Assembly: GCA_963711155.1 (NCBI GenBank)
Contig: CAVQDB010000005.1
Span: 1,923,298 to 1,987,297 of the forward strand
DNA length: 64,000 nt
Direction: 5' to 3'
Origin: an uncultured Armatimonadetes bacterium
GTDB taxonomy: Bacteria > Armatimonadota > UBA5829
In this document: in pieces, positions 3,115 to 61,500 of the stretch
Numbering within the stretch: position 1 is the stretch's first letter
Layout of the letters: each line of letters starts with the position of its first letter
Program-made: the position numbers and the translations under genes
The notes under the pieces: generated by a model
Databases searched by the model: none
What the model was told of the DNA's origin: nothing
The model's input: only the letters and a program-made list of their open reading frames with translations

Positions 3115-3177
3115 CACGTCGTGCTGAACTTGATTCAGCATCCACGCCTGGGCCCTGAATCAAGTTCAGGGTGACGT
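3115..3177. repeat. REP-like double hairpin (CTGAAC..GTTCAG family), copy 1
   Basis: cacgtc-gTGCTGAActtgatTCAGCAtccacgcctgggcCCTGAAtcaagtTCAGGgt-gacgtg. Two hairpins are bracketed by inverted cacgtc/gacgtg. The architecture matches 27640..27701. Confidence 0.7.
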
Positions 3178-3228
3178 GATACAACTCACTGAGCGCAAAT
3201 CACTTAGCCTACGAAGCGGAGGCAGATC

Positions 3229-7974: not shown

Positions 7975-8511
7975 ATGATCAAGCTTACGACACCACTGGC
8001 TGATTCGGATACCGAGCCGCTGCGCGCGGGGGACAGCGTGCTGCTGTCGGGCGTCGTGTATACGGCGCGGGATGCCGCCCACGCACGGCTGGTGCGATTG
8101 CTGGAGGAAGGCGAACCGCTGCCGATTGACCTCGCGGGCCAGGTGATCTACTACGTCGGGCCGACCCCCGCGCCGCCCGGACATGTCATCGGCGCGGCAG
8201 GACCGACCACGGCCGGCAGGATGGACTCGTTCACGCCCGCACTGCTCGAAGCGGGACTCAAGGGCATGATCGGCAAGGGCCTGCGCTCGCAGGAAGTCAG
8301 AGACGCCATCGTCAAGCACAAGGCCGTCTACTTCGCCGCGACCGGCGGCGCCGCCGCGCTGCTCGCCAAGCGCATCGTCTCCTGCGAGGTCGTCGCCTAC
8401 GAAGACCTCGGCTGCGAGGCAATCCACCGCCTCGAAGTCCGCGACCTGCCGCTCGTAGTCATCAATGATTGCATGGGTGGGGATTTCTATCGGAGAGAGT
8501 TTGAAGGTTAG
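7975..8511 (+). CDS. class I Fe-S fumarate hydratase beta subunit
   Basis: GVVYTARDAAHARL...YYVGPTPAPPGHVIGAAGPTTAGRMD...AVYFAATGGAAAL is the typical hydro-lyase beta type. ATG at 7975 lies inside ORF 7933..8511. Confidence 0.8.
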   Translation: MIKLTTPLADSDTEPLRAGDSVLLSGVVYTARDAAHARLVRLLEEGEPLPIDLAGQVIYYVGPTPAPPGHVIGAAGPTTAGRMDSFTPALLEAGLKGMIGKGLRSQEVRDAIVKHKAVYFAATGGAAALLAKRIVSCEVVAYEDLGCEAIHRLEVRDLPLVVINDCMGGDFYRREFEG

Positions 8512-8551
8512 AAGGTTGCAGGGTTAGAAGGTTTCCCGCGACTCTGTGCAC

Positions 8552-11328: not shown

Positions 11329-11334
11329 TCACGA

Positions 11335-11412
11335 AGGGAGAATCGGGAAAGGGAGAAAATCAGAAATGGAGAAAGGGCTTTCTCCCTTTCTAGTTTTCCC
11401 CTTTTTCCGATG
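11335..11412. repeat. purine-rich imperfect palindrome (GAAGGGAGAATCGG family), copy B
   Basis: gaagggagaatcgggaaagggagaaaatcagaaatggagaaaggg / ctttctccctttctagttttcccctttttccgatg, 7 nt after the stop of 10228..11328. Confidence 0.55.
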
Positions 11413-11434: not shown

Positions 11435-12409
11435 TTGAAGTTTGCTGCGTGGATGGCGTATCACATGGAATCGCGGGAGATCGTGGACGACTACATCAGG
11501 CGGGCCGCGGTCGCCCTGCGCGGGCACGAGTTCGTGATATGCGAGAATGAGGAGTCGATCAAGCGCGAGATCGCCGACGCCGATGCGGTCATCTGCTGGA
11601 AGATGACGCCGGAGGTGTTCGCGTGCGCGCGGAAGCTGAAGTGGATTCAGTTCGGCAGCGCCGGCATCGACCACACGATCTTCCCCGAGCTGCTCGCCAG
11701 CGACGTGATCCTCACAACAATGAGCGGCATCCACGCCATTCCCGTCTCCGAGCACGTGCTTGCGCTGATGCTCGCGATGACCCGCCGTCTCGATCTCGCG
11801 CACAGGCTTCAACTCGAACACCGCTTCGAGCGCACGGAGTTGGCATGGACCGCGGGGGAATTGGCCGGCAAGACCCTCGGCATCATCGGCCTGGGCAATA
11901 TCGGCCTGGCAATCGCGCACCTGGCGCGGGCGTTCGGGATGCGGGTGGTCGGCACGAAGCGGACCGCTGATGGTGACCTGCCCGGCGTGGATCGCGTCTA
12001 CGCGCCCGACGAGCTCGACGACATGCTGCCGGAAGTGGACTGCCTGGTGATGGTCGTGCCCCTGACGGAGGCCACCCGCGCGCTGATCGGGAGGCGCGAA
12101 ATCGAGCTGATGAAGCCGGGCTCGTATCTGGTAAACGTCGCGCGCGGCGCGATGCTCGACCACGATGCGCTCGGTGACGCCATTCGATCGGGCCAACTCG
12201 CCGGCGCGGCACTCGACGTCTTCCCGGAGGAGCCGCTGCCGCCCGACAGCCCGATCTACGACCTGCCCAACCTCATTATGACCCCACACACCGGCAGCTC
12301 CGGCAGGCGCTACGGCGAGCGCGCCGCGCAGGTCTTCGAGCGCAACCTCTCCTCGTTTGCCGCCGGCCACGAGATGATGAACGTGTACGACAGGGGAAGG
12401 GGATATTAG
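11435..12409 (+). CDS. D-isomer-specific 2-hydroxyacid dehydrogenase (NAD-binding)
   Basis: GKTLGIIGLGNIGLAIAHLARAFGMRVVG dinucleotide fold. VNVARGAMLD and PNLIMTPH motifs. Start uncertain (TTG 11435 or ATG 11450). Confidence 0.8.
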   Translation: MKFAAWMAYHMESREIVDDYIRRAAVALRGHEFVICENEESIKREIADADAVICWKMTPEVFACARKLKWIQFGSAGIDHTIFPELLASDVILTTMSGIHAIPVSEHVLALMLAMTRRLDLAHRLQLEHRFERTELAWTAGELAGKTLGIIGLGNIGLAIAHLARAFGMRVVGTKRTADGDLPGVDRVYAPDELDDMLPEVDCLVMVVPLTEATRALIGRREIELMKPGSYLVNVARGAMLDHDALGDAIRSGQLAGAALDVFPEEPLPPDSPIYDLPNLIMTPHTGSSGRRYGERAAQVFERNLSSFAAGHEMMNVYDRGRGY

Positions 12410-12492
12410 TTACGAGTTACGAAATACGGAAATACGAATCCGGGAGACGGTTGCAGCAACCTTGTTTCGTATTTCGTAATTCGTAATTCGTC
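12409..12492. terminator. TACGAAW heptamer-word hairpin between convergent stop codons
   Basis: gttacgagttacgaaatacggaaatacgaa, 26-nt loop, tttcgtatttcgtaattcgtaattcgt. It fills the gap between the stops at 12407-09 (+) and 12491-93 (-) exactly. Confidence 0.6.
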
Positions 12493-13634
12493 ATTGCTCT
12501 TCCGCCCACGCGTGCGCCGCCCGCCGCTCCTCCCACGGCGGCGGTTCGGGGATGCCGAAGGTCTCGCGCTTGCGCTTGAGGTAGTAGAGGTAGTTCTCGT
12601 AGGTTACGTCCGGCGGGACGCGGTGGTCCACGTGCGGGACGCAGCCGCCCTGCTCCACCAGCGGCCTTATCCGCTCGATCTCTCTGTCGATCGCGTCCTT
12701 TCCGGCGATGAGCTGGGTCTTGTCCACGCCACCGGCAAGCAGCACCCTCCGGCCGAACTGCTCCCGCATCCAGTAGGGGTCCGTGCCGCCGCGAATCTCC
12801 AGCGGGAACATGATGTTGACACCTCCGTCCAGCCAGCAATCGACCACGCAGTTGATGTTGCCGTCGCAATCGACTATCGCGAACTCGCAGCCGTTCGCGC
12901 GAAAGAGGTCGGTAAGCCTCTTGTAGTGCGGGGTCAGCCACCTGCGGAACATCGACGGCGATATGATCGGGCCGTGGTTGAACGCCATGTCCTCCCAGAA
13001 GGTCAGCAGATCGAACTGCACCTCGGTCGCGGCGCGCTTGAGAAGCTGGTATTGGAACTCGGTGAGATAGTCGATCATCTCCTCGACCCACGCCGGGGTC
13101 GTCCATGCACGCGATTGCTATGTTCTCGAACCCCATCCAGTCGCGAATCCAGCCGAACAGGCTGCCCGCGCCTATGCACAACGACGCGCTCCGGATTGCG
13201 TACCCGCTGCTTCCACGCCTCCCAGTCCGCGTCACTGGGATAGCGGCTGGGATCGGCGGGATCGAACTTCGTCTTGAACTCGTCCCAATCCTGGCGGGTC
13301 TCGATCGGGAACTTGAGGTAGAGCGGGATCGAGGAGGAGCCGTCCGTGTAGATCATCTTGGTGGCGCCGTCGTGGTCGATGATCTTGCGGTAGCGGTCGC
13401 CTTCCTCAAGGACCTTGTACTCGAATCCGGGAATGGCGCCGTTGCGCACCGGCGCGCCCATCTTGCCCTCAAACCGAAGAAGACGTCGGCCCTGCCGTTG
13501 TTGTTGACGTATTCCGGCAGGCCCTGTTTGTGCCACTCGGGGAAGGTCTCGTTCCAGTAGCCGAACTCCTCGTCCGGCACGTGGTCCACGGGCTGGAAGC
13601 GCATGCACGCCAGCCACCGTTCTCTGCTGTTCAT
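12491..13634 (-). CDS. uroporphyrinogen decarboxylase (URO-D) family protein, three frameshifts as assembled
   Basis: Pieces in four frames join into MNSRERWLACMRFQPVDHVPDEEFGYW... FEGKMGAP...KIIDHDG... SLFGWIRDWMGFENIAIACMDDPG... MIDYLTEF...GGCVPHVDHRVPPDV. Shifts at ~13470, ~13185 and ~13093. Confidence 0.65.
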
Positions 13635-22472: not shown

Positions 22473-22551
22473 CGCATTGACAATTTCCGATTGACGATCT
22501 ACGATTTACCAAGCCAACCACGGGTCACAAGTCGTCAATCGTCAATAGCAA

Positions 22552-27006: not shown

Positions 27007-27597
27007 ATGAGTGACGAACGGATTGTGGTGCAGAGACCATCTTTCATGAGCGGCAGGGGTTCTCAGGAGGACATCCTGAAACTGCTTGACGGTCTGGAAG
27101 AACTGGCGGAAAACGCATACTCGTTCTTCGGCAAAGCGTGGGGCATCGACCTCGAAGAGTTCCACATGCACACCAACAAGATTCGCGCGTCCCTGCCGGA
27201 TGAAGTGCGCAGGGCCAGTCGCGTCGCAAACGACAGCGACAAGATCGTCTCCGCCGCAAAGGAAGAGGCGGCGGTGATCACCGAGCGCGCCAGCGAGGAG
27301 GCGAACCGCGTCGTCGAAGAAGCCCGTCAGATGGCGGCAAAGCTGATAGATACGAGCGAGATCAATAAGCTTGCAAAGACCCAGGCGCAGGACATTCTCT
27401 CCCATGCCGACGCCTCCGCCCGCGAAGTCCGCCGTGGCGCGGACGAGTATGCCCGCGAAGTCCTTGCCACCATCGAGAATCATCTGGCCACCGTTATGGG
27501 TACCCTGCAGAAGGGCCGCGAGAAGCTGGAAGTGCGAATAACCACGCAGCAGACGGCCGAACCCGTCATTCCGACCGGACGCGGCGTCAGAAGGTAA
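27007..27597 (+). CDS. hypothetical coiled-coil protein (weak ATP-synthase-b/V-ATPase-G-like flavour)
   Basis: ATG at 27007 (MSDERIVV) inside ORF 26944..27597. Charged A/E/R-rich helices. No confident family. Confidence 0.4.
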   Translation: MSDERIVVQRPSFMSGRGSQEDILKLLDGLEELAENAYSFFGKAWGIDLEEFHMHTNKIRASLPDEVRRASRVANDSDKIVSAAKEEAAVITERASEEANRVVEEARQMAAKLIDTSEINKLAKTQAQDILSHADASAREVRRGADEYAREVLATIENHLATVMGTLQKGREKLEVRITTQQTAEPVIPTGRGVRR

Positions 27598-27718
27598 TTG
27601 CGAATTACGAATTACTAGTTGCGAGTTACGAATCGCCTAGTGTCATGCTGAACTTGATTCAGCATCCAGGCCTGGATCCCGAAACCAGTTCAGGATGACA
27701 CGATTCGTAACTCGTAAC
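27598..27718. repeat. composite element: TACGAAT-word inverted arms enclosing a REP-like double hairpin
   Basis: Left arm ttgcgaattacgaattactagttgcgagttacgaatcg. Cargo 27640..27701 is gtgtcaTGCTGAActtgatTCAGCA...CCCGAAaccagTTCAGGatgacac. Right arm cgattcgtaactcgtaac. Confidence 0.7.
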
Positions 27719-27740
27719 TGTGAGTACAGGGGGAAGTGAT

Positions 27741-28739
27741 ATGCCGAATGTGATGGAGACGATCTACGCCAAGGCCAGGGCCGCCACAAAGCGCGTTGTG
27801 CTGCCGGAGGCTGATGATGTGAGGACCGTCGCCGCGGCCCAGAAGATAGTTGAGCGCGGTCTGGCCCAGGTGGTACTGGTCAGCGAGGAGGACAAGATCG
27901 CGGCTGCGTGCAAGGCGTCCGGCGCGGACGTGTCCGGCTGCAGAATCGTCGATCCGGTCAAGTCGCCACTGCGAGACGAATACGCTAAGGCGTTCTACGA
28001 ACTTCGAAAGGCAAAGGGCATCACAGAGCAGCAGGCGCACGAGATCGTCGCCGACCCGCTCTATTTCGGCTGCATGATGGTCTACTCCGACGAGGCCGAC
28101 GGGCAGGTCTCCGGCGCGACGCACGCGACCTCCGACACGGTCCGCCCCGCGCTGCAGATCCTCAAGACCGCGCCGGGGTGCAAGATCGCGTCGAGCTTCT
28201 TCGTAATGATCGTCCCGGACTGCGAATACGGCGAGAACGGCGTCTTCATCTACGCGGACTCCGGCCTCGTCATCAACCCCAACGCCGACGAACTCGCCGA
28301 GATCGCCATCCAGAGCGCGAAGACGATGCGCACACTGCTCGGCTTCGAGCCGCGAGTGGCGATGCTGTGCTTCTCGACCAAGGGCAGCGCGTCCGATCCG
28401 ATCGCGGACAAGGTGATCGAGGCCACCAGGATCGCCAAGGAGCGCGCGCCGGAGCTGCTCATCGACGGCGAGCTTCAGGGCGACGCGGCCCTGGTCGATT
28501 GGATCGGCAAGAAGAAGGCGCCCGGAAGTCCTGTCGCGGGCAGAGCGAACGTTCTGATTTTCCCTGACCTCAATGCAGGTAATATATGCTACAAGCTGAC
28601 GGAGAGGCTGGCGAAGGCCGAGGCCTACGGCCCGGTCCTTCAGGGCATCCGCAGGCCCGTCAATGACCTCTCCAGAGGCTGCGATGTGGAAGACATAGTC
28701 AACGTCGCCGCGATTACCGCGGTGCAAGCGATAGAATGA
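27741..28739 (+). CDS. pta: phosphate acetyltransferase
   Basis: VVLPEADDVRTV...SGATHATSDTVRPALQI...IFPDLNAGNICYKL. ATG 27741 inside ORF 27720..28739. Confidence 0.9.
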   Translation: MPNVMETIYAKARAATKRVVLPEADDVRTVAAAQKIVERGLAQVVLVSEEDKIAAACKASGADVSGCRIVDPVKSPLRDEYAKAFYELRKAKGITEQQAHEIVADPLYFGCMMVYSDEADGQVSGATHATSDTVRPALQILKTAPGCKIASSFFVMIVPDCEYGENGVFIYADSGLVINPNADELAEIAIQSAKTMRTLLGFEPRVAMLCFSTKGSASDPIADKVIEATRIAKERAPELLIDGELQGDAALVDWIGKKKAPGSPVAGRANVLIFPDLNAGNICYKLTERLAKAEAYGPVLQGIRRPVNDLSRGCDVEDIVNVAAITAVQAIE

Positions 28740-28817
28740 GTTACGAAATACGAACTACGAAATACGAATTGGGAAGCGTGCGTCCTCATTCGTATTTCGT
28801 ATTTCGTAACTCGTAAC
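28740..28817. terminator. TACGAAW heptamer-word hairpin after pta
   Basis: gttacgaaatacgaactacgaaatacgaat, 18-nt loop, attcgtatttcgtatttcgtaactcgtaac. It begins 1 nt after the pta stop. Confidence 0.65.
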
Positions 28818-28841
28818 TGGAAACACCAGGTAACCCAGTCG

Positions 28842-30050
28842 ATGAAGATTCTTGTATTGAACAGTGGTAGTTCGTCTCTCAAGTATCAATTGATCGACTC
28901 CGAGACCGAGGAGGTGCTGGCCAAAGGCCTTGCCGAACGGATCGGGGTCGTGGGCGGTGGAGGCAAGATCAAGCACGAGGGGAAGTGCACCAAAGAAGTC
29001 GATGTGGACATGCCCGACCACGATAAGGCGATGGACCACGTCTTCGCGCTTCTTACCGACCCCGAATGCGGCGCGATATCGAGCGTTGATGAGATCGCGG
29101 CGGTCGGACACCGCGTGGTGCACGGCGGCGAGAAGTTCGTTCAGCCGACGCTGATGACCGAAGAAACCGTCGATGAGATCGACAAGCTCAGCGAGCTCGC
29201 GCCCCTGCACAATCCGCCGAACCTCAAGGGCATCCGGGCCTGTATGCGGTTGATGCCGAATGTGCCGCAGGTCGCCGTTTTCGACACGGCGTTCCACGCG
29301 ACCATCCCCGACTACGCCTACACCTACGCCCTGCCCTATAAGTCCTACACCGACTACGGCGTGCGGCGCTACGGCTTCCACGGCACCTCGCACAAATACG
29401 TCACCGGTCAGGCCCAGAAGATGCTCGCGGCCGTCGGGCACGACCCGGCCTCCACGAAGATCATCACCTGCCACCTCGGCAACGGCTGCAGCATGGCGGC
29501 GGTCGTGGGCGGCAAGGTGATCGACACGAGCATGGGCATGACGCCCGCCGAAGGGCTCGTGATGGGCACGCGCGGGGGCGACATGGACCCGGCTATTCTC
29601 GTCTACCTCGCCAAGGAGCTTCACGCACGCGCCGACGAGATCGACAACATCATCAACAAGAAAAGCGGATTGCTCGGGGTGTCGGGCGTGTCGAGCGATA
29701 TGCGCGACGTCGAACAGGCCGCCAACGACGGCAATAACCGCGCCAGGCTGGCGCTCGAGATATTCTGCTATCGCATAAAGAAATACATCGGCGCCTACGC
29801 GGCGGCGATGGGTGGCCTGGACGCGATTGTCTTTACCGGCGGGATCGGAGAGAACAGCGCGCCGGTGCGCTCGCGGGTGTGCAAGGGGCTGGGGTTCCTG
29901 GGCGTCGATCTCGATGAAGCCAGGAATGACTCCCTGCGCGGCCCGGCCGATATCAGCAAACCGTCGGGCTCCGTGCGAATCCTGCTCGTTCCGACCAACG
30001 AGGAGCGCATGATCGCACGCGAGACGGCGGAATTGATCGGGAAGAGCTGA
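28842..30050 (+). CDS. ackA: acetate kinase
   Basis: MKILVLNSGSSSLKYQL, VGHRVVHGG, FDTAFH and GFHGTSH motifs. Confidence 0.9.
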   Translation: MKILVLNSGSSSLKYQLIDSETEEVLAKGLAERIGVVGGGGKIKHEGKCTKEVDVDMPDHDKAMDHVFALLTDPECGAISSVDEIAAVGHRVVHGGEKFVQPTLMTEETVDEIDKLSELAPLHNPPNLKGIRACMRLMPNVPQVAVFDTAFHATIPDYAYTYALPYKSYTDYGVRRYGFHGTSHKYVTGQAQKMLAAVGHDPASTKIITCHLGNGCSMAAVVGGKVIDTSMGMTPAEGLVMGTRGGDMDPAILVYLAKELHARADEIDNIINKKSGLLGVSGVSSDMRDVEQAANDGNNRARLALEIFCYRIKKYIGAYAAAMGGLDAIVFTGGIGENSAPVRSRVCKGLGFLGVDLDEARNDSLRGPADISKPSGSVRILLVPTNEERMIARETAELIGKS

Positions 30051-30206: not shown

Positions 30207-30753
30207 ATGAAGCTGGACCTAAGCGAGATCGCTGCCCACCTGGGCAAGCGCATCAAGTACCGAGATAGACGAAGAACCGATCGAGGATGACGCCGGCGGC
30301 CTAAAGTGCGTCGAGCGGGTCACGGGCAGCCTGGCGTTCTCCAACACCGGCCGCACTGTCGACGTTCGCGGCAAGTGCCGGACGGTGGTCGAGCTGGAAT
30401 GCGCGAGGTGTCTGAGGACCTATCGGCTGCCCGTCGAGCTCAACATCGAGGAGGAGCTTCCGCTCGAGGGGCATCCCTGGGCGCCGGAGAGCGACGAAGA
30501 GGAAGAGGAACTGCCGGAAGAGGAACGCGACCCTCTGTTCGTGGACAACGTCTTCGATCTGGAGGAGTATCTGCGGCAGGCGATACTGGTGAACGTGCCG
30601 ATCAAGCCGCTGTGCGAGGAGGCCTGCAAGGGCCTCTGCCCGCACTGCGGCGCTAACTTGAATGATGGACAGTGCGATTGCCGGCCGGATTCGACCGAAT
30701 CACCATTCGGCGCGCTGGCATCGCTGATCGAAGAAGGGGAGTTGGAAAGTTAG
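30207..30753 (+). CDS. yceD: DUF177 (YceD) family protein, one frameshift as assembled
   Basis: MKLDLSEIAAHLGKRIKY, then after an extra c at ~30261, EIDEEPIEDDAGGLKCVE...CARCLRTYRLPVE...CKGLCPHCGANLNDGQCDC. Upstream of rpmF as usual. Confidence 0.75.
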
Positions 30754-30833
30754 AAAGTTGAAAGTCCAAAGTTCAGGAGACCCTTTGCTGAGGACGACTC
30801 CCAACTTTCAACTTGCAGCTTTCGACTTTCAAC
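30741..30833. repeat. GAAAGTT heptamer-word hairpin overlapping the yceD stop
   Basis: gttggaaagttagaaagttgaaagtccaaagtt ... aactttcaacttgcagctttcgactttcaac. Confidence 0.6.
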
Positions 30834-30846
30834 TAGGAGAATACGA

Positions 30847-33123: not shown

Positions 33124-34020
33124 ATGGGGAGTAGGAAGGTTGCGTTCGTATTCCCCGGCCAGGGGTCGCAGTGCGTCGGGATGGGCAAGGAGCTTGCGGA
33201 GAACTATGCCGTGGCGGCGGACGTGTTCAAGCGCGCCGACGCTGCACTGGGCTACTCGATCTCGGAGCTGTGCTTCAACGGCCCTGAAGACGAGCTGAAG
33301 CAGACCATCAACGCGCAGCCCGCGCTCTTTGTGACCAGCGCGGCGGCGTATGAAGTCGCGCTTGAGAATGGCCTCCTGCCGGCGTTTGCCGCGGGTCACA
33401 GCATCGGCGAATACGCGGCGCTCTATGCGGCGGGCACATACACGCTCGAAGAGGGATTGAGGCTGGTTCGGACCCGCGCGCGGTTGATGCAGGACGCTGC
33501 CGAAGCCAATCCGGGCACGATGGCCGCGATTCTCGGCCTGTCGCCCGAACAGGCCACCGAAGCGGTCGAGAAATCGGCCGACGCCGGGATCGTCACCGCG
33601 GCCAACTTCAACAGCCCGATCCAGACGGTGATATCGGGCGAGGCGGCGGCGGTCGCGAAGGCGTCCGAGATCGCTTCCGAGATGGGCGCGAAGCGCGTCG
33701 TGCCGCTCAACGTCAGTGGCGCGTTTCACTCGCCTCTTATGCAGTCGGCGGCGGAAGCGCTCTATGAAGCGCTGAAGGGTGCTGAGATGTGCGATCCCAT
33801 GACGCCCGTGGTCGCGAACTATACCGCCGACTTCGAAACTACCGCCGCCGAAGTGCGCGCCAATCTAGCCAAACAGCTCACCGGCAGCGTGCGGTGGGTC
33901 GAGTCCGTACGCAGGATGCTTGACGCGGGGGCCGAAGCTTTCATAGAATTGGGGTCGGGTAACGTGCTGGCGGGGCTGATCAAGCGGATCGCGCCGGAAG
34001 CAGAGATCATTGAGTATTGA
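33124..34020 (+). CDS. fabD: malonyl CoA-ACP transacylase
   Basis: FVFPGQGSQ, AGHSIGEYAAL and VSGAFHSPLM motifs. Confidence 0.9.
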   Translation: MGSRKVAFVFPGQGSQCVGMGKELAENYAVAADVFKRADAALGYSISELCFNGPEDELKQTINAQPALFVTSAAAYEVALENGLLPAFAAGHSIGEYAALYAAGTYTLEEGLRLVRTRARLMQDAAEANPGTMAAILGLSPEQATEAVEKSADAGIVTAANFNSPIQTVISGEAAAVAKASEIASEMGAKRVVPLNVSGAFHSPLMQSAAEALYEALKGAEMCDPMTPVVANYTADFETTAAEVRANLAKQLTGSVRWVESVRRMLDAGAEAFIELGSGNVLAGLIKRIAPEAEIIEY

Positions 34021-34095
34021 TTATTGAGTATTGAGTATTTCCACCGAGTCCACGACTGCGTGGGCAATACTCAATACTCAATACGAAATACTCAG
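34009..34095. repeat. GAGTATT heptamer-word hairpin overlapping the fabD stop
   Basis: attgagtattgattattgagtattgagtatt, 25-nt loop, caatactcaatactcaatacgaaatactcag. Confidence 0.65.
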
Positions 34096-35314: not shown

Positions 35315-36553
35315 ATGCAGGAAAGAAGAGTTGTAGTAACCGGCCTTGGGGCGATCACTCCCCTGGGCAACACCGTTGATGAGTTCTGGGCGTCGGTAAA
35401 GGCGGGCAAGAACGGTATCGGACCGATAACGCATTTCGACGCCTCCCAGCACGCCACGCAGATAGCGGCGGAGGTTAAGGGCTTCGATCCGACCGAGTTC
35501 GTCGATGCAAAGTCCGCGCGGCAGATGGACACGTTCGTCCAATACGCGACCGCGGCGGCGCTCACCGCGATGAAGGACAGCGGACTCGAAGTCACCGAGG
35601 AAAACGGCCCTCGCGTCGGCGTGCTGATCGGATCGGGCATCGGCGGGGTCGAGACCTGGGAAGTGCAGCATATCAATTTGCTCAACAACGGCCCGAGGCG
35701 CGTCAGCCCGTTCTTTGTCCCGATGCTGATCGCGAATATGGCCAGCGGGATGGTGGCGATCCTTACCGGCGCCAAGGGACCGAACATGGCCGTGGTGACC
35801 GCGTGCGCGACCGCCAGCCACTCCACCGGCGAGGCCTGGCACATGATCCGGCGCGGCGATGCCGACGCGATGATCGTCGGCGGCGCCGAGGCAGCGATTC
35901 GACCGCTGAGTTGCGCCGGTTTCTGCACCATGAAGGCGATGACCACCCGCAACGACGATCCCGAGCACGCCAGCCGGCCGTTCGACAAAGATAGAGATGG
36001 GTTCGTAATGGGCGAGGGCGCGGGCGTTCTCATCATCGAAGAACTCGAGCACGCCAAGGCCCGCGGCGCGCACATCTACGCCGAGATCGTCGGCTACGGC
36101 TGCTCGGCGGACGCGTATCACATGGTCGTTATCGACCATCACGGCGCGGCGCGAAGCATGCAGAACTCGCTCGATAGCGCCGGCATTACCGCCGACAAGA
36201 TCGACTACATCAACGCGCACGGCACATCGACGCCGGTCGGCGATCCCGAGGAGTGCAAGGCGATCAAGCTGACGTTTGGCGACGCCGCGAAGAACGTGAT
36301 GGTCAGCTCGACGAAGTCCATGCACGGCCACCTGCTCGGCGCGGCGGGTGCGGTCGAGAGCATCGTGTGCATCAAGGCGATCAACGAGGGCATTGTCCCG
36401 CCGACCCGCAACCTGGTCGAGCCCGATACCGAGTGCACTCTCGATCTCATTCCGAACGAGGCGCGCGAAGCGAAGGTAGAATATGCGATGAACAACTCCT
36501 TCGGCTTCGGCGGCCAGAACGCGACGCTGATTTTCAGAAGGTTTGATGGTTAG
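35315..36553 (+). CDS. fabF: 3-oxoacyl-ACP synthase II
   Basis: [34 protein letters not shown] and NSFGFGGQN motifs. Confidence 0.9.
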
Positions 36554-36628
36554 TGGAAAGCTGAGAGTGGAAAGTGGAAAGCGGCCGGGCCGCTCGCAGC
36601 TTTCCACTTTCCGCTTTCCACTTTCCAC
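36553..36628. repeat. GGAAAGT heptamer-word hairpin after fabF
   Basis: gtggaaagctgagagtggaaagtggaaagcgg, loop, agctttccactttccgctttccactttccac. It starts at the fabF stop. Confidence 0.65.
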
Positions 36629-37837: not shown

Positions 37838-37878
37838 CCGTCAGTCATCGGTCGTCGGTCAAGAATCGCGGTTAGCAG

Positions 37879-38589
37879 ATGGCAAGCATCGAAGAACTCA
37901 GAGCACGCCTTAGCAGGGCGGCGGGCATGAGCGATCCAGTGGAGCGCCGGCTCTGGGTTCTCGCCGTCATCACTGAATGCCTGAGTCCGACCGGCATCCA
38001 GCCCGTGCTCGTGGGCGGAGCGGCTGTCGAGTTCTACACGTCGGGTGGGTACACGACGCTGGATGTGGATGTCGTCTGTGACAGCCAGGTGCTGGACGGC
38101 CCGATGTCCGATCTCGGCTTCGTCAAGGAGGGGCGCCACTGGATTCGCGAGGATCTTTCAATGGCGATAGAGGCCCCGTCGAGCAGCCTTCCGGTCGTTG
38201 AGCGTGAACGTGTGCTCGCCGTGCGCGTGGATGGCATGACGGCCTACGTGCTCGGCGTCGAGGACCTCATAATCGACCGCCTCAACGCGTTCGTGCACTG
38301 GCAGTCGAAGGAAGACGGGCGTTGGGCGGCCCACCTAATCGCGGAGAACCGTGATCAGATCGATTGGGACTACCTCAAGCGGCGCGCGGTCGAAGAGAAG
38401 TGCGACGCCGCGTTGAATGACATCCTCAAGGACTTGCAGCCAGTGAAAAGCGTGGACTATCAGGACTGGAAAAAGCAGCGACGAAGCAAGTTTGCCACCG
38501 CTGTCCGGGTTGAGAATTCGCTGGACAAGCAAAGGTCGGGCGGACGGCCGCGCGACCCGGAGAAAGAAACGCGTGCTCATCCGCCTTGA
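37879..38589 (+). CDS. hypothetical protein, minimal nucleotidyltransferase-fold-like (DUF6036/AbiEii-like flavour)
   Basis: VLVGGAAVEFYTSGGYTTLDVDVV and VLGVEDLIIDRLNAF. The 3' end is uncertain because ORF 38492..38686 overlaps it. Flanked by inverted GACTGAN heptamer arrays. Confidence 0.35.
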   Translation: MASIEELRARLSRAAGMSDPVERRLWVLAVITECLSPTGIQPVLVGGAAVEFYTSGGYTTLDVDVVCDSQVLDGPMSDLGFVKEGRHWIREDLSMAIEAPSSSLPVVERERVLAVRVDGMTAYVLGVEDLIIDRLNAFVHWQSKEDGRWAAHLIAENRDQIDWDYLKRRAVEEKCDAALNDILKDLQPVKSVDYQDWKKQRRSKFATAVRVENSLDKQRSGGRPRDPEKETRAHPP

Positions 38590-38713
38590 GAAAGCCCGCC
38601 GCCAGCGTCTGATCGAGTCGGGGAAGCTGACAATCCTCGGCCCGAGACTCTGGCAATGGCGCATCGACTTCCCGACTGAAGACTGACGACTGAGAACTGA
38701 TGACTAACAACTG

Positions 38714-39442
38714 ATGACTCCCTTCGACACCAAGACACTTAAGAAGATCGCTCGCAAGCTGCAGGTGGACATAACCGACTTCGCCCTGCTGCAGCAGTCG
38801 CTGACGCACAGGTCGTATCTGGGCGAGGCGGGCGAGGCGATGTCCAACGAGCGGCTGGAGTTCATGGGCGACTCGGTTCTCGGAATGGTCGTGGCCGAGT
38901 ATCTCTATGCGCAGTTCCCTGAGCGATCCGAGGGCGATCTTGCCAAAGCCAAGGCGGTCGCGGTGAGCGAGCCGGTGCTGGCCGAGAGCGCGAAGCTCCT
39001 GGGCCTGGCCGATATGATCCTGATGAGCACCGGCGAGGAAGCCAGCGGCGGCAGGAGGCGGCTGTCGATCCTTTCGGACTCGTTCGAGGCGCTGGTAGCG
39101 GTGGTCTACCTCGACTGCGGCATGGACGCGGCGCGGCAGTTCGTGCTGCGAGCGCTGGAGTCGATACTGCTCGATATCGAGCGAAAAGAGCATATTCGCG
39201 ATTACAAATCACTGCTCCAGGAGCACACCCAGGGGCTGTATAAAGAAGCGCCCAAGTACATCGTCATCGCTGAAGAGGGAGCGGACCATGACAAGACCTT
39301 CACGATCGAGGTGACGCTCAGAGACGCCCCGATGGGACGGGGAACGGGCAAGAGCAAGAAACAGGCCGAGCAAGCGGCGGCGCTCCAGGCGCTGGAGTTC
39401 GTTGAGAAAGCTATGCCAAGCATTCGGGAGGGCGATGAATGA
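38714..39442 (+). CDS. rnc: ribonuclease III
   Basis: NERLEFMGDSVLG signature and a C-terminal dsRBD (GKSKKQAEQAAA). Confidence 0.9.
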   Translation: MTPFDTKTLKKIARKLQVDITDFALLQQSLTHRSYLGEAGEAMSNERLEFMGDSVLGMVVAEYLYAQFPERSEGDLAKAKAVAVSEPVLAESAKLLGLADMILMSTGEEASGGRRRLSILSDSFEALVAVVYLDCGMDAARQFVLRALESILLDIERKEHIRDYKSLLQEHTQGLYKEAPKYIVIAEEGADHDKTFTIEVTLRDAPMGRGTGKSKKQAEQAAALQALEFVEKAMPSIREGDE

Positions 39443-41286: not shown

Positions 41287-41681
41287 GGCTGGTTATGGAC
41301 TCCAGTGCCATGTTGGCGCTTCTGCGGCTGGAAGAGGGAGCGAGCAACGTCGAGGCACTGCTTACCGATAACGAATGCTCTGTGCATGCCGTGAATCTGT
41401 GCGAAGTCTACTACGGGTTCCGTCGCGAGAAGGGGCATGAAGCAGCGGAGGCTGCCCTAGATGCCTTTGCCCTCACAGGCCTTGAAACCCGCGAGGACTT
41501 GGACCCGGCTTTCTGGCAACTGGCCGCTATCTACAAGTGCGATCACCGTCGCGTTTCACTTGCCGATTGCTTCGGTCTGGCGCTGGCGAACAGAATGAAC
41601 GCGGAGTTCGTTACCACAGACCACCACGAGATTGACGCGCTGGTGGAACTCGGCCTCTGCCGCGTTCGATTCATCCGCTGA
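41283..41681 (+). CDS. vapC: PIN-domain ribonuclease toxin VapC
   Basis: MRLVMDSSAML...NLCEVYY...SLADCFGLALA...FVTTDHHE. The four acidic PIN positions are recognisable. Confidence 0.8.
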   Translation: MRLVMDSSAMLALLRLEEGASNVEALLTDNECSVHAVNLCEVYYGFRREKGHEAAEAALDAFALTGLETREDLDPAFWQLAAIYKCDHRRVSLADCFGLALANRMNAEFVTTDHHEIDALVELGLCRVRFIR

Positions 41682-41703
41682 CAACCAAGGACTGACAACT
41701 CCT

Positions 41704-42732
41704 ATGCAGCGAACAGTAGACTACTCAAACGGCAAAGTGACAATGATCGACCAGACCCGCATTCCGGCGGAGTTGGTCAGTATCGAGCTGACGACCCCCG
41801 AGCAGGTCGCGGACGCGATCACAACTATGAGGGTCCGTGGCGCGCCAGCGATCGGCGTGGCGGCGGCGGTCGGAGTGGCGCTCGCGGCGCGAAACGCGTC
41901 GGCCGACGGCAAGGACGAATTCCTCGGCGAGGTCGAGCGCGCCGCGCACCTGCTCCGCAACACCCGCCCCACCGCGGTCAATCTCTTCTGGGGCATCGAG
42001 CGAATGCTGTGCACCGCCAGGGCCGCGCTCGCGGACGGCCTATCCGTCGATGAAGCGAAGCACGTCGTTGACGAATGCGCCATCTCGATGGTCCAGGAGG
42101 ACGAGGACGTATGCCGCGCGATCGGCGCGCACGGCGCTGAGCTGATGCCCGACGAGGGCCACGTGCTCACCCATTGCAACGCCGGCGCGCTCGCGTGCGT
42201 CTCTTACGGCACCGCGCTCGGCGTGATCCGCGCGGCTATCGAGACCGGCAAGCGAATCCACGTCTACTCCGACGAGACCCGCCCGCGCCTCCAGGGCATG
42301 AAACTGACCTGCTTCGAGCTGTTGGCCGACAACATCCCCGTAACGGTGATCTCGGACAGCATGGCCGGCTCGCTGATGCGCAAGGGACATATCGACTGCG
42401 TCGTCGTGGGCGCGGACCGCATCGCCGCGAGCGGCGACGTCGCGAACAAGATCGGCACGTATTCGGTCGCGGTGCTGGCGCACCACCACGGAATCCCGTT
42501 CTACGTTGCCGCGCCGACCTCGACCATCGACCATTCCCTGCACTCCGGCGACGACATCCCCATCGAGGAGCGTTCCCACGAGGAAGTCACCCACATCGAC
42601 GGTCACCGCATCGCGCCAATCGGAGTCGATGTCATCAACCCCAGCTTCGACGTCACTCCCGCGGCGCTCGTGACCGCGATCATCACCGAGAAGGGCATCG
42701 CACACCCGCCGTATAAGCAGTCGTTGAAGTGA
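41704..42732 (+). CDS. mtnA: S-methyl-5-thioribose-1-phosphate isomerase
   Basis: MRVRGAPAIGVAAA, TRPTAVNLFW, THCNAGALA, ETRPRLQG and VGADRIAASGDVANKIGTY motifs. Confidence 0.85.
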   Translation: MQRTVDYSNGKVTMIDQTRIPAELVSIELTTPEQVADAITTMRVRGAPAIGVAAAVGVALAARNASADGKDEFLGEVERAAHLLRNTRPTAVNLFWGIERMLCTARAALADGLSVDEAKHVVDECAISMVQEDEDVCRAIGAHGAELMPDEGHVLTHCNAGALACVSYGTALGVIRAAIETGKRIHVYSDETRPRLQGMKLTCFELLADNIPVTVISDSMAGSLMRKGHIDCVVVGADRIAASGDVANKIGTYSVAVLAHHHGIPFYVAAPTSTIDHSLHSGDDIPIEERSHEEVTHIDGHRIAPIGVDVINPSFDVTPAALVTAIITEKGIAHPPYKQSLK

Positions 42733-42766
42733 TCAGTTGACAACTGATGACTGTTGGAGGGTCGCT

Positions 42767-43480
42767 ATGCTCAGTGAAGCCTTGATGAAGCAGCTCATCC
42801 GCGACGTGCCCGACTTCCCCGCGCCGGGCGTGATGTTTCGCGACATAACCCCCGTCCTACAGGACGCGAAGGCGTTCAAGGAAGTGATCGACTCGATGGT
42901 CGAGTGCGTCGCGCCCATGAAACCAGACGTCATCGTCGGCATCGAGAGCCGCGGATTCATCCTGGGAACGCCCATCGCGCTCCAACTCGGCGTCGGGTTC
43001 GTGCCGGTGCGCAAGGCAGGCAAGCTGCCCGCCGACACGATCAAGGCCGAATATGCGCTCGAATACGGCACCAACGCGGTCGAGATACATCGCGACGCGC
43101 TCGAACCGGGCATGCGGGTGGCCATAGTTGATGATCTCCTCGCCACCGGCGGCACCGCCAGAGCGGCGATTCAGCTCGTGGAGGAACTCGGCGCCAAGAT
43201 CGTCGGCCTGACATTCCTGATCGAGCTCGACTTCCTGCACGGCAGAAACGTGCTCGAAGGCTACGAGGTCTGTACGCTTGTAAGGTACTCAGGAGACTCC
43301 AGAGTGATGCTGAACCGCATCTTCAAGCTCAAGGAGAACAAGACAACCGCATTGACGGAGGCCCTGGCCGGCCTGATCGCCTACACAACAATCAAGCTCT
43401 TCCGCGGCAAGTTCAGGCAGATCCACCCGCTGATGGCCATCGTCAGCATTCTCTTCGCCGTCAGCTTCGCCCTGAGCTGA
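42767..43480 (+). CDS. apt: adenine phosphoribosyltransferase reading through into a permease remnant
   Basis: IRDVPDFPAPGVMFRDITP...VAIVDDLLATGGTA. The normal APT length ends near ...TLVRY (~43288), but the frame stays open for 64 more codons. Confidence 0.8.
   Translation: MLSEALMKQLIRDVPDFPAPGVMFRDITPVLQDAKAFKEVIDSMVECVAPMKPDVIVGIESRGFILGTPIALQLGVGFVPVRKAGKLPADTIKAEYALEYGTNAVEIHRDALEPGMRVAIVDDLLATGGTARAAIQLVEELGAKIVGLTFLIELDFLHGRNVLEGYEVCTLVRYSGDSRVMLNRIFKLKENKTTALTEALAGLIAYTTIKLFRGKFRQIHPLMAIVSILFAVSFALS
43307..43480 (+). pseudogene. remnant of an AzgA/PbuG-type purine permease (N-terminal ~28 aa joined to C-terminal ~29 aa)
   Basis: Own RBS aggaga, 8 nt, ATG 43307. MLNRIFKLKENKTTALTEALAGLIAYTT fits the NCS2/AzgA N-terminal pattern FKLxExxTTxxTExxAGxTTF. 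The tail GKFRQIHPLMAIVSILFAVSFAL looks like the family C-terminus. Confidence 0.5.
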
Positions 43481-43541
43481 CTTCGAACCTCGAACTTCGG
43501 ACCCCGAACCTCGTGTCACCAAATGTTAAGCTCCATTTCTC

Positions 43542-47964: not shown

Positions 47965-49423
47965 GTGAGAAAAAGCCTGACAATTGTCTTGATAATAGTG
48001 ATCGTGGTCGGCGGGCTTTTCGCCGCGATGATAGCGCGCGCTCCGAAGAAGGCCCAGCCAACGACCGCGCAGCGGTGGGCAACGGAGGGCATACCCGTGG
48101 AGACGGCGGTGCTCTCGCGCGGCGACATGGAGCAGCACCGTCGAGGTCACTGGCGACATCAACGCCCTCGACAAGGTCACTCTATCGGCCAAGGTCCCCG
48201 GGCGCGTGGTGAGTGTCACGGCTCGCGAGGGCGATAGGGTCACGTGCGGCGAAGCGATGATCGTGCTGGATCAGGCGGATATGAGAAGCCATCTCCTCTC
48301 AGCACAGGGCGGTCTCCAGACGGCTGTGGCGCGGCTCTCGCAGGCAAAGACCAACCAGGCCGTCACGAAGATACAGACCGACTCCGCAATCGAGCAGGCT
48401 CAGGCACAACTGGACGCCGCAAGGGCCAGGCTCGCGGTCGCAAAGAAGCCGAGTCGCTCTCAGGAGCGAATGGTGGCCGAGAACGCCGTCGCCGAGGCCA
48501 AGGCCAACCTCGACCGCGCCGCCGCCGACTACAAGCGCAACAAGAACCTGCTTGCCCAGGGCGCCATCTCGCAGTCGGCGTTCGACGTTGCCGACACGGC
48601 GTACAAGGTCACGCAGGCGCAGTATAAGTCCGCAACCGATCGGCTCTCGATGATAAAGGAAGGCGGACGAACCGAAGAGATTGCGCAAGCGGAGGCGCAG
48701 GTTCAAGTCGCGCAGGAAGCCCTGCGCACGGCCAGGGCCAACGCGTCGCAGAACATGCTCCGCAAGGAGGACGTCAGGCAGGCCCAGGCGGCGCTGGAAC
48801 AGGCGAAGGCCGCCGTCGCGATCGCCCAGCAGCAGCTATCATACTGCTACGTCAACGCGCCTCTATCCGGCGTGCTATCGGCAAGGCAGACCGAGCCCGG
48901 CCAGGTGGTCTCGGCGGGCCAGCCGCTGGGTGAGGTCGTGAACCTCGGCTCGATCTACTTCAAGGGCGACGTGTCCGAGAAGGAGATCGTCAACGTCCAC
49001 GCCGGCCAGCATGTGCGCGTGAAGGTGGACGCGATTCGTGGACGGACGTTTGCCGGACACGTTGACAAGGTCTTCCCTGCCGGCTCGACGACGAGCAGGA
49101 ACTTCTCCGTGCGCGTCAGAATCGACGACCCCGGCCACAAGATCAGGCCGGGCATGTTCGCGCGAGGCCGGATCGTGACCGGAATCGAGCACGACGTGAT
49201 CCTGATTCCCAAGGACGCCATCGACGAACGCAAAGGCACGGATTCGGTGTTCACCATCGGCGCGAAAAGCAAAGTCGCACGGCATATCGTCACCGTTCTG
49301 CGGGAAAACCCGGACTACGTGCAGATTGACCTGCCCACGGACCTCAAACCAGGCGATGTCGTGGTCACGACAGGCCGTCAGAGCCTGCAGCCAGGCTCCA
49401 AGGTCCTGGTCGAGAAGAGGTAG
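47965..49423 (+). CDS. RND efflux membrane fusion protein (HlyD/AcrA family), one frameshift as assembled
   Basis: TM anchor in the ORF 47965 frame. TVEVTGDINALDKVTLSAKVPGRVVSV and the rest in the ORF 48206 frame. Extra base at ~48136. Confidence 0.8.
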
Positions 49424-49449
49424 TTACGAATTACGAATTACGAATTGCG
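49424..49449. repeat. single TACGAAT-word arm after the MFP stop
   Basis: ttacgaattacgaattacgaattgcg. No complementary arm follows. Confidence 0.6.
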
Positions 49450-49455
49450 GGCAGC

Positions 49456-49601
49456 GTGTCATGCTGAACTTGTTTCAGCATCCAGGCGCCAACCTGTCAT
49501 GCTGAACTTGTTTCAGCATCCAGGCGCTAACGGGTCATGCTGAACTTGTTTCAGCATCCAGGCGGGCTGTCGTGGATCCTGAATCAAGTTCAGGATGACA
49601 T
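49456..49601. repeat. REP-like cluster: three tandem left-type hairpins plus one inverted right-type hairpin
   Basis: (g/c/g)tgtcaTGCTGAActtgttTCAGCAtccaggcg three times at a 38-nt period, then ggatCCTGAAtcaagtTCAGGatgacat. Confidence 0.8.
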
Positions 49602-49606
49602 GCCAT

Positions 49607-49713
49607 TGACTGACGACCGATGACTGACAACTGATGACTGACGACCGATGACTGATGACTGACAACTGATGACTGACGACTGATGACTGATGACTGACAA
49701 CTGACAACCGACG
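49607..49713. repeat. TGACTGA 7/14-nt tandem array directly upstream of the RND gene
   Basis: TGACTGACRACYGA units interspersed with TGACTGA half units. TGA occurs in all three + frames. It ends 17 nt before ATG 49731. Confidence 0.8.
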
Positions 49714-58010: not shown

Positions 58011-58679
58011 ATGGAAGAGAATGTAGTCACGCTGGACACCGTTCGGCGGGACCCTAAGGTCAAGACATTCATAGAGGCGGCAAACGAGCAGATGGACGCG
58101 CTCGGTTACACTGAGCACGGCTTCCGCCACGCCAGCATCGTCGCCGAGACCGCCCACAGCATCATCGCGAGCATGGGCCAGGGCGCGCGCCAGGCCGAGC
58201 TTGCCTCGATATCGGGCTACCTGCATGACATCGGCAACGCCGTCAACCGCCTCGGTCACCCGGACACGTCGGCGATTATGGCGTTCACGCTGCTGAACGA
58301 GATCGGTATGCCCGCAAACGAGATCGCGCAGGTCATCGCCGCGATAGGCAATCATGAGGAGGAGCTCGGCGCGCCGGTCAGTGCGATTTCCGCCGCGCTG
58401 ATCATCGCCGACAAGTCCGACGTCCACCACTCCCGCGTCCAGAACCAGAACCCGCTCACATTCGACATCCACGACCGCGTCAACTTCTCCGTGCAGAAGT
58501 CCGCGCTGCGGGTGGATACCGACAACAAATCCATCAACCTGGAGCTGACCACCGACGAGCAGTCGGCGTCGGTGATGGAGTATTTCGAGATATTCCTGTC
58601 CCGAATGCTGATGTGCCGCCGCGCCGCCGACTTCTTCGGCTACAAGTTCAAGCTGATCATCAACGATGTGGAGATGTAG
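58011..58679 (+). CDS. HD-domain phosphohydrolase
   Basis: GFRHASIVAE...GYLHDIGNAVNRLGH...GNHEE...IIADKSDV. Confidence 0.75.
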   Translation: MEENVVTLDTVRRDPKVKTFIEAANEQMDALGYTEHGFRHASIVAETAHSIIASMGQGARQAELASISGYLHDIGNAVNRLGHPDTSAIMAFTLLNEIGMPANEIAQVIAAIGNHEEELGAPVSAISAALIIADKSDVHHSRVQNQNPLTFDIHDRVNFSVQKSALRVDTDNKSINLELTTDEQSASVMEYFEIFLSRMLMCRRAADFFGYKFKLIINDVEM

Positions 58680-58686
58680 TCGTTAT

Positions 58687-58774
58687 CCTGACAACGCAGT
58701 GGGGTCGTCATGACAACGCAGTCGTGTCATCATGACAACGCAGTCGTGTCGTAATGACAACGCAGTCGTGTCAT
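58687..58774. repeat. four tandem copies of a 22-nt mini-hairpin unit
   Basis: cATGACAacgcagtcgTGTCAt four times (58687, 58709, 58731, 58753; the first copy is diverged). Each unit carries an ATGACA/TGTCAT inverted repeat. Confidence 0.8.
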
Positions 58775-58795
58775 CCTGAACTCGTTTCAGGATCC
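58770..58795. repeat. REP-like hairpin (CTGAAC..GTTCAG family variant)
   Basis: gtcATCCTGAActcgtTTCAGGATcc, abutting the 22-nt array. Confidence 0.6.
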
Positions 58796-60619: not shown

Positions 60620-60846
60620 AAACTCCCCCCCGCTGCGCCGCCGGGCACATCACTACTCCCCCCCGAGGCGGGGGGCTGGGGGGGGTCGGAACATCCGGCC
60701 CCGTGCACAGCAAACTCCCCGCCGCGGGCTGGGGGGGGTCGGAACATCCGGCCCTGTGCACAGCAAACTCCCCCCCGCTGCGGGGGGGCTGGGGGGGTCG
60801 GCTAGGATTGTTCGGGCGGGATCTGCAATCCCGCCCGAACAACCAG
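60620..60846. repeat. G/C-homopolymer-rich tandem repeat plus 14-bp hairpin inserted in trmFO
   Basis: Units begin with cagcaaactcccc at 60616, 60708 and 60761 (92, 53 and a truncated ~45 nt). Core is ...ggggggtcggaacatccggccYgtgca. The hairpin is ttgttcgggcggga / tcccgcccgaacaa at 60808-60842. Confidence 0.75.
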
Positions 60847-61451: not shown

Positions 61452-61500
61452 CATCTCCCTTCCCTTCATTCGTAGTTCGTAATTCGGTAATTGCGTAATG
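61452..61500. repeat. TACGAAT-word / GAAGGGA-type repeat arm inserted in trmFO
   Basis: Plus strand catctcccttcccttcattcgtagttcgtaattcggtaattgcgtaatg. On the coding strand it reads ITQLPNYELRMKGREM between EITRI and RPCVVATGPLTS. Confidence 0.7.

Follow-up and report, generated by a model that had tools for sequence, protein, structure and literature searches.

Heptamer-word hairpins behind stop codons of an Armatimonadota genome as probable gene-less relatives of PF05635 cassettes

What kind of element occupies the spacer between pta and ackA in an uncultured member of the Armatimonadota, where a long hairpin made of tandem 7-nt words separates the two genes? The DNA analyzed here, referred to as the window, is the whole stretch of 64,000 nucleotides at C5:1923298-1987297 of a 5.64-Mb genome assembly (G000; 62% G+C). 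In the hairpin at 28739..28818, which like the other hairpins has no strand assigned, the stop codon TGA of pta (28737-28739) is followed by the 5' arm GTTACGA AATACGA ACTACGA AATACGA, i.e., four units of the form (G/A)WTACGA, by a GC-rich loop of 20 nt with a unique sequence, and by the 3' arm TTCGTAT TTCGTAT TTCGTAA CTCGTAA with four complementary units. The start codon of ackA is located at 28842, 24 nt past the hairpin, and the RNA fold has an energy of -41.4 kcal/mol (z -7.9). Reports of heptamer repeats date back to 1990, when they were described in cyanobacteria (STRR); among the long simple repeats of many bacteria they have since been noted as the most frequent kind, and those of Xanthomonas were characterized in detail, in all cases without an explanation.

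A preliminary description of the window had listed hairpins of this build at 12409, 27598, 28740, 30741, 34009, 36553, and 22478. All seven are present, and their energies as folded RNA range from -20 to -61 kcal/mol (z -3.7 to -11.5). Two of them share the TACGAAW word of the pta-ackA spacer. The hairpin at 27596..27719 (-61 kcal/mol, z -9.2) begins on a TAA stop codon (27595-27597) and holds a nested REP-like palindrome at 27640-27701 in its loop, and that at 12408..12495 (-34.1 kcal/mol, z -4.9) has convergent genes on either side and a TAG stop codon (12407-12409) fused to its first unit. In the GAAAGTT hairpin at 30740..30834, the yceD stop codon TAG (30751-30753) is located within the second repeat unit, and AGGAG and an ATG come after the hairpin. 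The same arrangement is found at the junction of fabD (assigned from Pfam) and fabG, where the fabD stop codon TGA (34018-34020) is part of the array of an ATTGAGT/AATACTC (GAGTATT) hairpin (34009..34094; -46.5 kcal/mol, z -11.5). Directly 3' of the TAG stop codon of fabF (36551-36553), a GTGGAAA/CTTTCCA hairpin (36552..36628; -54.1 kcal/mol, z -7.1) is followed by CCCGGAGG and then by an ATG at 36641. The weakest of the window hairpins is a TTGACRA-type representative of the ATTGACT family at 22476..22548 (-20.1 kcal/mol, z -3.8).

The single and direct arrays previously listed were likewise recovered, except that 41678-41703 and 42730-42760 contain only about two loose copies each. On the plus strand, a single TTACGAA arm of 3.3 copies (49424..49446) is fused to a TAG stop codon (49421-49423) and precedes a cluster of a REP-like 38-nt element (49457-49603), a direct array of about 15 TGACTGA/CAACTGA units (49607..49713) is located 5' of an AcrB-type gene, a GACTGAN direct array (38673..38719) reaches into the rnc start codon at 38714, and a TCGAACC/CGAACYT direct array (43480..43513) begins at the stop codon of a phosphoribosyltransferase gene. 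The minus strand carries a short GACTGAN-type array in inverse orientation just past an aminotransferase stop codon (37839..37860) and a degenerate TACGAAT arm within the trmFO reading frame (61468..61499). The rnc gene for RNase III (38714..39442, plus strand; Pfam Ribonuclease_3 and dsrm) is situated outside the element. A DUF6036 nucleotidyltransferase gene (37879-38589) is flanked by inverted GACTGAN arrays (37839-38719); this bracket has the opposite polarity, with the C-rich array first, and no PF05635 gene accompanies the GACTGAN family.

Further repeats were observed in the window. A purine-rich/pyrimidine-rich hairpin (AAGGGAGAA.../...TTCTCCCTT) is located at 11334-11403, directly past the stop codon at 11328, and an 8-mer array (GTTAGAAG, 4.4 copies) at 8499-8533 coincides with the stop codon at 8511; the same 8-mer array is also found beside a PF05635 gene of the relative G002 (L129). 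Tandem repeats with larger units are present at 58678-58779 (22/44-nt unit TGACAACGCAGTCGTGTCGTCA, about 4 copies) and at 60673-60778 (53-nt unit that contains runs of G and of C, two copies). The assembly consists of five contigs and was scored as 60.6% complete; with 5.64 Mb, it is nearly twice the size of same-genus genomes (2.8-4.1 Mb), and it contains several repeat families. Among sequencing runs, traces of the organism were detected in one marsh metagenome only (share 0.06, as contigs), and in no RNA run.

The 7-nt periodicity is a property of the whole genome. A lag detector found 409 arrays at lag 7 versus 13, 19, and 31 at lags 6, 8, and 9, respectively, and a single array in a Markov shuffle, so that the periodicity claimed for the window survives a genome-wide scan. 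TRF reported 993 rows at period 7 versus 257 at period 6 and 324 at period 8, and after merging, the 993 rows make up 959 arrays that represent 211 canonical words. Of the 959 arrays, 215 have a partner in inverted orientation no more than 160 nt away, versus 15 in a permuted control, and in total the genome harbors 126 hairpins and 737 single arrays. Since only about a quarter of the heptamer arrays are paired, hairpins are the minority form genome-wide, and the window is richer in them than the genome average. Words are found again at unlinked loci much more often than expected by chance, which points to a shared source instead of independent evolution, as had been proposed.

A local source has to be considered first. 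The arrays and their partners might be home-grown simple repeats that originate by slippage and template switching, with a polymerase preference for 7 nt, and that are kept in unconstrained DNA without any relation to a gene. The 211 distinct words fit such an origin, as do long arrays of 12 to 36 units, the longest with up to 36-75 units, hairpin arms that are not exact mirror images of each other, and loops (median length, 26 nt) that look local and have the G+C content of the genome (64%, versus 38% in the arms). It is also in line with different words in orthologous spacers, with copy numbers that differ between Coxiella strains (PMC4990558), and with Mrazek's suggestion of slippage for heptanucleotide repeats as it is relayed in PMC4679880 and PMC4692102. 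A classical MITE with a conserved core was rejected, as 90 of 106 loops have a sequence that occurs nowhere else in the genome.

The size and the internal order of the arrays argue against local slippage as the only process. Copy numbers peak at 4-5 units (448 of 993 period-7 rows), whereas those of periods 6, 8, and 9 fall monotonically. The arms are polar: G exceeds C in the 5' arm of 99 hairpins versus 12 with the opposite bias (p=3e-18), and the sense strand of stop-adjacent single arrays is G-rich in 107 cases versus 31. The order of units is common to separate loci, e.g., in the 37 TACGAAW hairpins with (G/A)TTACGA outside and AATACGA inside, where AATACGA accounts for 38% of the inner but 6% of the outer units (permutation p<2e-4) and the inner end ...TACGAATTGG is shared by many copies. 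The size mode, the arm polarity, the shared unit order, and the genome-specific match to cassette words reported below show that slippage was not the sole generator, and home-grown repeats are thus an unlikely explanation. Of the slippage on both arms that had been suggested previously, a probable contribution remains, which is reflected by arrays of 12 to 36 copies and by the two to three copies in Coxiella.

Two more specific ideas about the arms were rejected. Period 7 does not serve as a device for stop codons in all frames, because stop triplets occur in 47 of 122 5'-arm words versus 53% expected from base composition, and no more than 14 5' arms contain a stop in every frame. A TA target-site duplication (TAGTTACGA...TCGTAACTA), as it appears in the TACGAAW family, is missing from the other families when they are inspected by eye.

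The location of the elements relative to genes was determined on the basis of crude gene calls made for this analysis. Only 10% of the hairpins and 24% of the single arrays are located within called genes, in a genome that is at least 75% coding, and the bias toward non-coding DNA corresponds to that of LSSR/STRR-type heptameric repeats. Among the 126 hairpins, 83 lie between co-directional, 23 between convergent, and 8 between divergent gene pairs. The first base of the hairpin lies between -20 and +10 nt from the upstream stop codon in more than half of the co-directional cases (48 of 83; 58%), with a median distance of 7 nt from this codon and of 79 nt to the next start codon. The occurrence of heptamer hairpins at or overlapping stop codons is hence confirmed. 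Tight operons tolerate insertions only in the slot between the stop codon and the ribosome-binding site (RBS), and this slot alone can explain the stop adjacency.

The preliminary description had concluded from the same position that the elements act as terminators. A function as transcription terminators or attenuators at gene ends would agree with stable stems directly past stop codons and with the enrichment between convergent genes (20% versus a background of 14%) and depletion between divergent genes (7% versus 15%). But the stems are not followed by a T-run, their arms have the low G+C content of 38% mentioned above, and a terminator scan flagged none of the hairpins and returned 15 sites versus 14.5 expected, i.e., no excess. 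A U-rich tail hidden in the 3' arm was rejected, as the A/T skew of these arms is random (T>A in 63 versus 54). Moreover, most hairpins separate two co-directional genes of a conserved operon, such as pta-ackA, yceD, fabD-fabG, or fabF-aminotransferase, and come immediately before the RBS of the second gene; in many cases, GGAGG and a start codon follow within 10-25 nt. The same stems elsewhere enclose a co-oriented gene that needs transcription through them. The terminator claim was accordingly abandoned, and a role of this kind is very improbable.

Intergenic hairpins that follow stop codons and are dispersed in families are also typical of REP/REPIN elements, which are mobilized by a RAYT (Y1 transposase). 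The genome contains Y1_Tnp matches as well as a separate, true REP-like family (GTCATGCTGAACTTGWTTCAGCATCCAGG) with a unit of about 30 nt that is itself a small hairpin and has about 250 matches in the genome. Copies of this family are present in the window at 27640-27701, 49457-49603, and 3115-3178, in the form of inverted doublets and a tandem cluster of three plus one, and two TACGAAW hairpins contain the element in their loops. Heptamer hairpins do not flank the Y1_Tnp loci; near the best of them (C3:1441570-1442085), a candidate RAYT-like gene, the only array is a single one at a distance of 2 kb. At least 10 word families stand against only two or three Y1 matches, and arms of tandem heptamers with variable loops are unlike REPINs. 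An assignment of the heptamer hairpins to this class is scarcely credible.

A different partner gene emerged from the same genome. PF05635 genes are small and code for a four-helix-bundle protein, known as S23p from the intervening sequences of 23S rRNA, that is homologous to Avd of the diversity-generating retroelements (DGRs). G000 harbors about 12 PF05635 loci (14 matches), the largest number among 31 relatives, and at 10 of the 12 loci the gene is enclosed by inverted heptamer arrays at a distance of about 30-100 nt on both sides. Each of these cassettes has its own word, namely GGGAACA, GCAGAGA, GGTTTAG, GAAAGTT (two loci), TACGAAW, AATGTTK, GGAGAGT, GGGGAAT, or ATTGACT, and the eleventh locus is a remnant of 41 aa between GAGTGTT arms. 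The cassette genes are co-oriented with the neighboring genes. All examined copies are located between protein-coding genes, none of them in a 23S rRNA helix, and they have the long stem of terminal inverted repeats with tandem heptamers that is present in rRNA intervening sequences (IVSs).

The words of these cassettes are largely those of the dispersed repeats. With at most one mismatch, the ten cassette words cover 71% of the hairpins and 52% of the single arrays, versus 20% (maximum, 36%) for composition-matched random word sets, and cassette words of other genomes cover 17% and 13%, respectively. Exact word matches amount to 22% for cassettes of the own genome versus 1% for foreign ones; local slippage predicts no such preference of the arrays for resident over foreign words. 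The agreement extends to array ends and unit order in the window hairpins at 28739 and 30740. The inner boundary ATACGAATTGGGAAG of the pta-ackA hairpin is identical to that of the TACGAAW PF05635 cassette at C3:1622016-1622491, and the 3' arm of the yceD hairpin agrees with that of the GAAAGTT cassette (C3:1223260-1223730) at about 30 of 33 positions (counted by hand on the alignment), among them the odd unit CTTGCA and the end AACTAG. The window hairpins themselves contain no PF05635 ORF. Intermediate stages of decay exist in the genome, i.e., cassette pseudogenes and remnants of 31 and 18 aa in two "loops". Taken together, the hairpins are likely to be gene-less, "solo" relatives of the PF05635 cassettes that are found at about 12 loci of the same genome, and of the generative mechanisms previously suggested, a mobile family fits best, with arms that match the resident PF05635 cassettes.

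Other observations made on the cassettes should be mentioned. The PF05635 cassette nearest to the window, an intact one with the word GGGGAAT, is located at C5:1987560-1988119, about 260 nt past the end of the window; two copies of the GGGGAAT arm with 4 units each precede its gene on the left, and an arm of 12 TCCCCAT units follows on the right. At C3:1620548-1622488, an upstream ORF of 500 aa continues in frame through the left TACGAAW arm into the PF05635 gene without an intervening stop codon, resulting in a single open frame of 646 aa. The long inter-arm regions at C5:121723, C3:415991, and C3:554759 have no PF05635 match; one of them brackets an ordinary gene, and two are without a convincing ORF.

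Several observations count against a cassette origin. The distances between the arms fall into two classes (0-160 nt and 350-450 nt, with few values between), and gradual decay of cassettes in place therefore fails to explain most solo hairpins; the unique sequence of 90 of the 106 loops is a further point. The cassette encodes no recognized transposase or integrase, and with no RVT_1 match in the genome, copying by a resident reverse transcriptase together with the Avd-like protein is not supported. The abundant families GACTGAN, CGAGGTT, and GGATTTT also have no resident cassette; in the window, this concerns the TGACTGA family array at 49607-49713 and the CGAGGTT family array at 43480-43513, for neither of which a resident PF05635 cassette was found in the genome.

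The direction might also be the reverse, with hairpins that existed first and PF05635 genes that landed in their loops. The REP-like element, which occupies the loops of two TACGAAW hairpins, sets an example for such landings, and rRNA IVSs occupy helix tips (PMC4990558). Random landing, however, predicts neither that one protein subfamily is associated with each word nor the covariation of protein and word across phyla presented in the following, and a sequence of events in this order appears quite improbable.

Evidence for the origin from cassettes also comes from relatives. Array density in the sampled genomes is uneven, with 13 arrays per 80 kb in G017 and 2 and 1 in G003 and G015, respectively. 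Of 21 PF05635 genes in about 14 related genomes, at least 13 are enclosed by clean inverted arms of 7-8-nt units. Every one of these cassettes has a word of its own, and whichever strand the gene is on, the left arm is the G-rich one. G005 contains arrays but no PF05635 match, which counts against a cassette origin. In the pta-ackA spacers of L008, L011, and L012, which comprise 0-25 nt, the hairpin is absent, and none of the orthologous fabF spacers of G007, G011, and G005 contains a heptamer hairpin; the spacer between fabF and the aminotransferase gene reads TAG plus 20 nt in G007 and TAG plus the 76-nt hairpin plus CCCGGAGG..ATG in G000. It was set as a prediction that hairpins at orthologous spacers carry the word of a cassette from their own genome, and two cases out of three agreed with it. 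In G013, the hairpin between pta and ackA has the different word GAGTTNT, for which an exact-word cassette exists in G013, and a hairpin past ackA in G014 (AATTCTG) matches a G014 cassette including the array ends. In the third case, G002, the word of the spacer hairpin had no match to a G002 cassette.

Cassettes with more distant words encode less similar proteins: in a set of 24, protein identity is 0.61 where the word distance is 0 and only 0.31 where it is 5 (Mantel p=1e-4; Spearman -0.31). Identical or near-identical words are found across phyla at a protein identity of only about 65%. The same design is present in Longimicrobium (GGGAATA x4 / TATTCCC x4), in an acidobacterium, and on a metagenome contig; a Pseudanabaena homologue has no arrays, which counts against a cassette origin. 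Neither the covariation nor the persistence of a word at such protein distances is anticipated by local slippage. Joint inheritance of gene and arms would already yield some correlation between protein and word without any recognition. Judging from these comparisons of sequences, the word may beyond that be held by selection tied to the protein.

The closest solved structure is 2GSC, i.e., XCC0516 of Xanthomonas campestris (E=1e-23, five chains), in which, according to the publication, five four-helix bundles form a ring. On the X. campestris contig JAYIKR010000006.1 (L162 400-900), an XCC0516-type PF05635 gene is located between accB and accC and flanked by GGGAATC GGGAGTG GAGAATC GGGAATC and an inverse array. 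GGGAATC is the word of 186 unexplained Xanthomonas arrays (Rehm et al. 2015, PLoS One, PMC4692102). Like the Nostoc word GGGGAYT, it forms tandem heptamers of mostly about 4 units that are 89-93% intergenic; 70-75 convergent inverted pairs occur per Xanthomonas genome, the arrays are 28 nt from the upstream and 160 nt from the downstream ORF, and 16% of them are located between convergent and 7-8% between divergent genes (PMC4692102). Rehm et al. found no function and left the neighboring gene unmentioned (PMC4692102). The position statistics are nearly equal to ours, and the G-rich arm comes first in both systems; the hairpins resemble the Xanthomonas inverted pairs in their proximity to the upstream stop codon, their rarity between divergent genes, and the mode of 4-5 units. 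Unlike Xanthomonas with its one dominant word, the Armatimonadota genome has at least 10 word families, most of which cannot form G-quadruplexes.

The rRNA IVSs provide the second parallel. In the 23S rRNA IVS of Coxiella burnetii, an S23p (PF05635) ORF is located inside a long stem of terminal inverted repeats (Warrier et al. 2016, PMC4990558). This stem of 28 bp contains GACAGAT heptamers in two to three copies, depending on the strain, and is cut by RNase III at the first heptamer; rRNA IVSs in general sit at helix tips (PMC4990558). The cassettes reported here share the PF05635 ORF within a heptamer-bearing inverted-repeat stem, but the elements are located in mRNA spacers after stop codons, and more than 100 copies lost, or never had, the ORF. 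In REP/REPIN systems, a single-copy RAYT gene is flanked by a hairpin repeat that is dispersed without the gene after stop codons (Bertels and Rainey 2011, PMC3116915). The outline of a gene with flanking repeats and gene-less copies behind stop codons is the same; the partner differs, being a protein of 120 aa with a four-helix bundle and no known DNA-cutting activity in place of a Y1 transposase, and so do the tandem-heptamer arms and the non-conserved loops.

Direct repeats of TAACTGA have been reported from Beggiatoaceae, cyanobacteria, and Bacteroidetes (MacGregor 2015, PMC4679880). The GACTGAN/CAACTGA arrays have a similar word and are also positioned just upstream of start codons; the word of the TGACTGA/CAACTGA array at 49607-49713 is one mismatch from TAACTGA (PMC4679880). 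The published repeats are direct and have no inverted partners, and the GACTGAN/CAACTGA family has no cassette here. Given that 211 words are present, a likeness to a few published words at one mismatch is not significant, and no claim is made from words shared across phyla (ATTGCGA and TTGTCAG in Nostoc; TAACTGA). Heptamers of the STRR type (short tandemly repeated repetitive sequences) were reportedly described in heterocystous cyanobacteria by Mazel et al. in 1990. STRR sequences comprise several heptamer words per genome, are tandemly arranged in non-coding DNA, and have no known function. The presence of several words in tandem non-coding arrays is common to STRR and our genome, which belongs to a different phylum. 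The kind of element is thus known from Xanthomonas repeats, STRR, and rRNA IVSs, to which the present genome adds a variant with many words and a further phylum. A literature search found no published link between heptamer repeats and PF05635.

According to the explanation that we favor, i.e., solo relatives of PF05635 cassettes, the complete element is a PF05635 gene within two inverted arrays of 4-5 heptamers, the G-rich one being transcribed before the other, and it occupies the space between a stop codon and the RBS of the next gene in co-orientation with the host operon. Solo hairpins would arise from such cassettes, either because the gene is lost or because the arms are copied, and replication slippage may afterwards alter the number of units. 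By analogy with the rRNA IVS, the stems of 25-35 bp in the mRNA would be cut by RNase III, the putative host enzyme being the product of the rnc gene in the window, and they would then serve as intercistronic processing sites and not as terminators.

A more far-reaching reading, which we put forward only tentatively and which has the odds against it, assigns a specific role to the protein. Each PF05635 protein, as a ring of five like that in the Xanthomonas crystal structure, might recognize specifically the heptamer word of its own cassette, and each subunit would contact about one 7-nt unit. The gene and its arms would then be an autonomous element, the hundreds of gene-less hairpins and arrays non-autonomous copies or binding sites, and the heptamers of Xanthomonas, STRR, and other phyla footprints of a single family. 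One unit per subunit of a pentamer would explain the size mode of 4-5 units (28-35 nt).

For genome annotation, the consequence is that heptamer hairpins should not be labeled as terminators. The observation that the dispersed words of a genome are mostly those flanking its own PF05635 genes provides a concrete partner for repeats that have long been on record, and the Xanthomonas word is found on both sides of the gene for XCC0516, which has a solved pentameric structure but no assigned function. It also ties together rRNA intervening sequences, Avd-like DGR proteins, and intergenic repeats, which were previously treated apart, and an old descriptive puzzle thereby becomes open to bench experiment.
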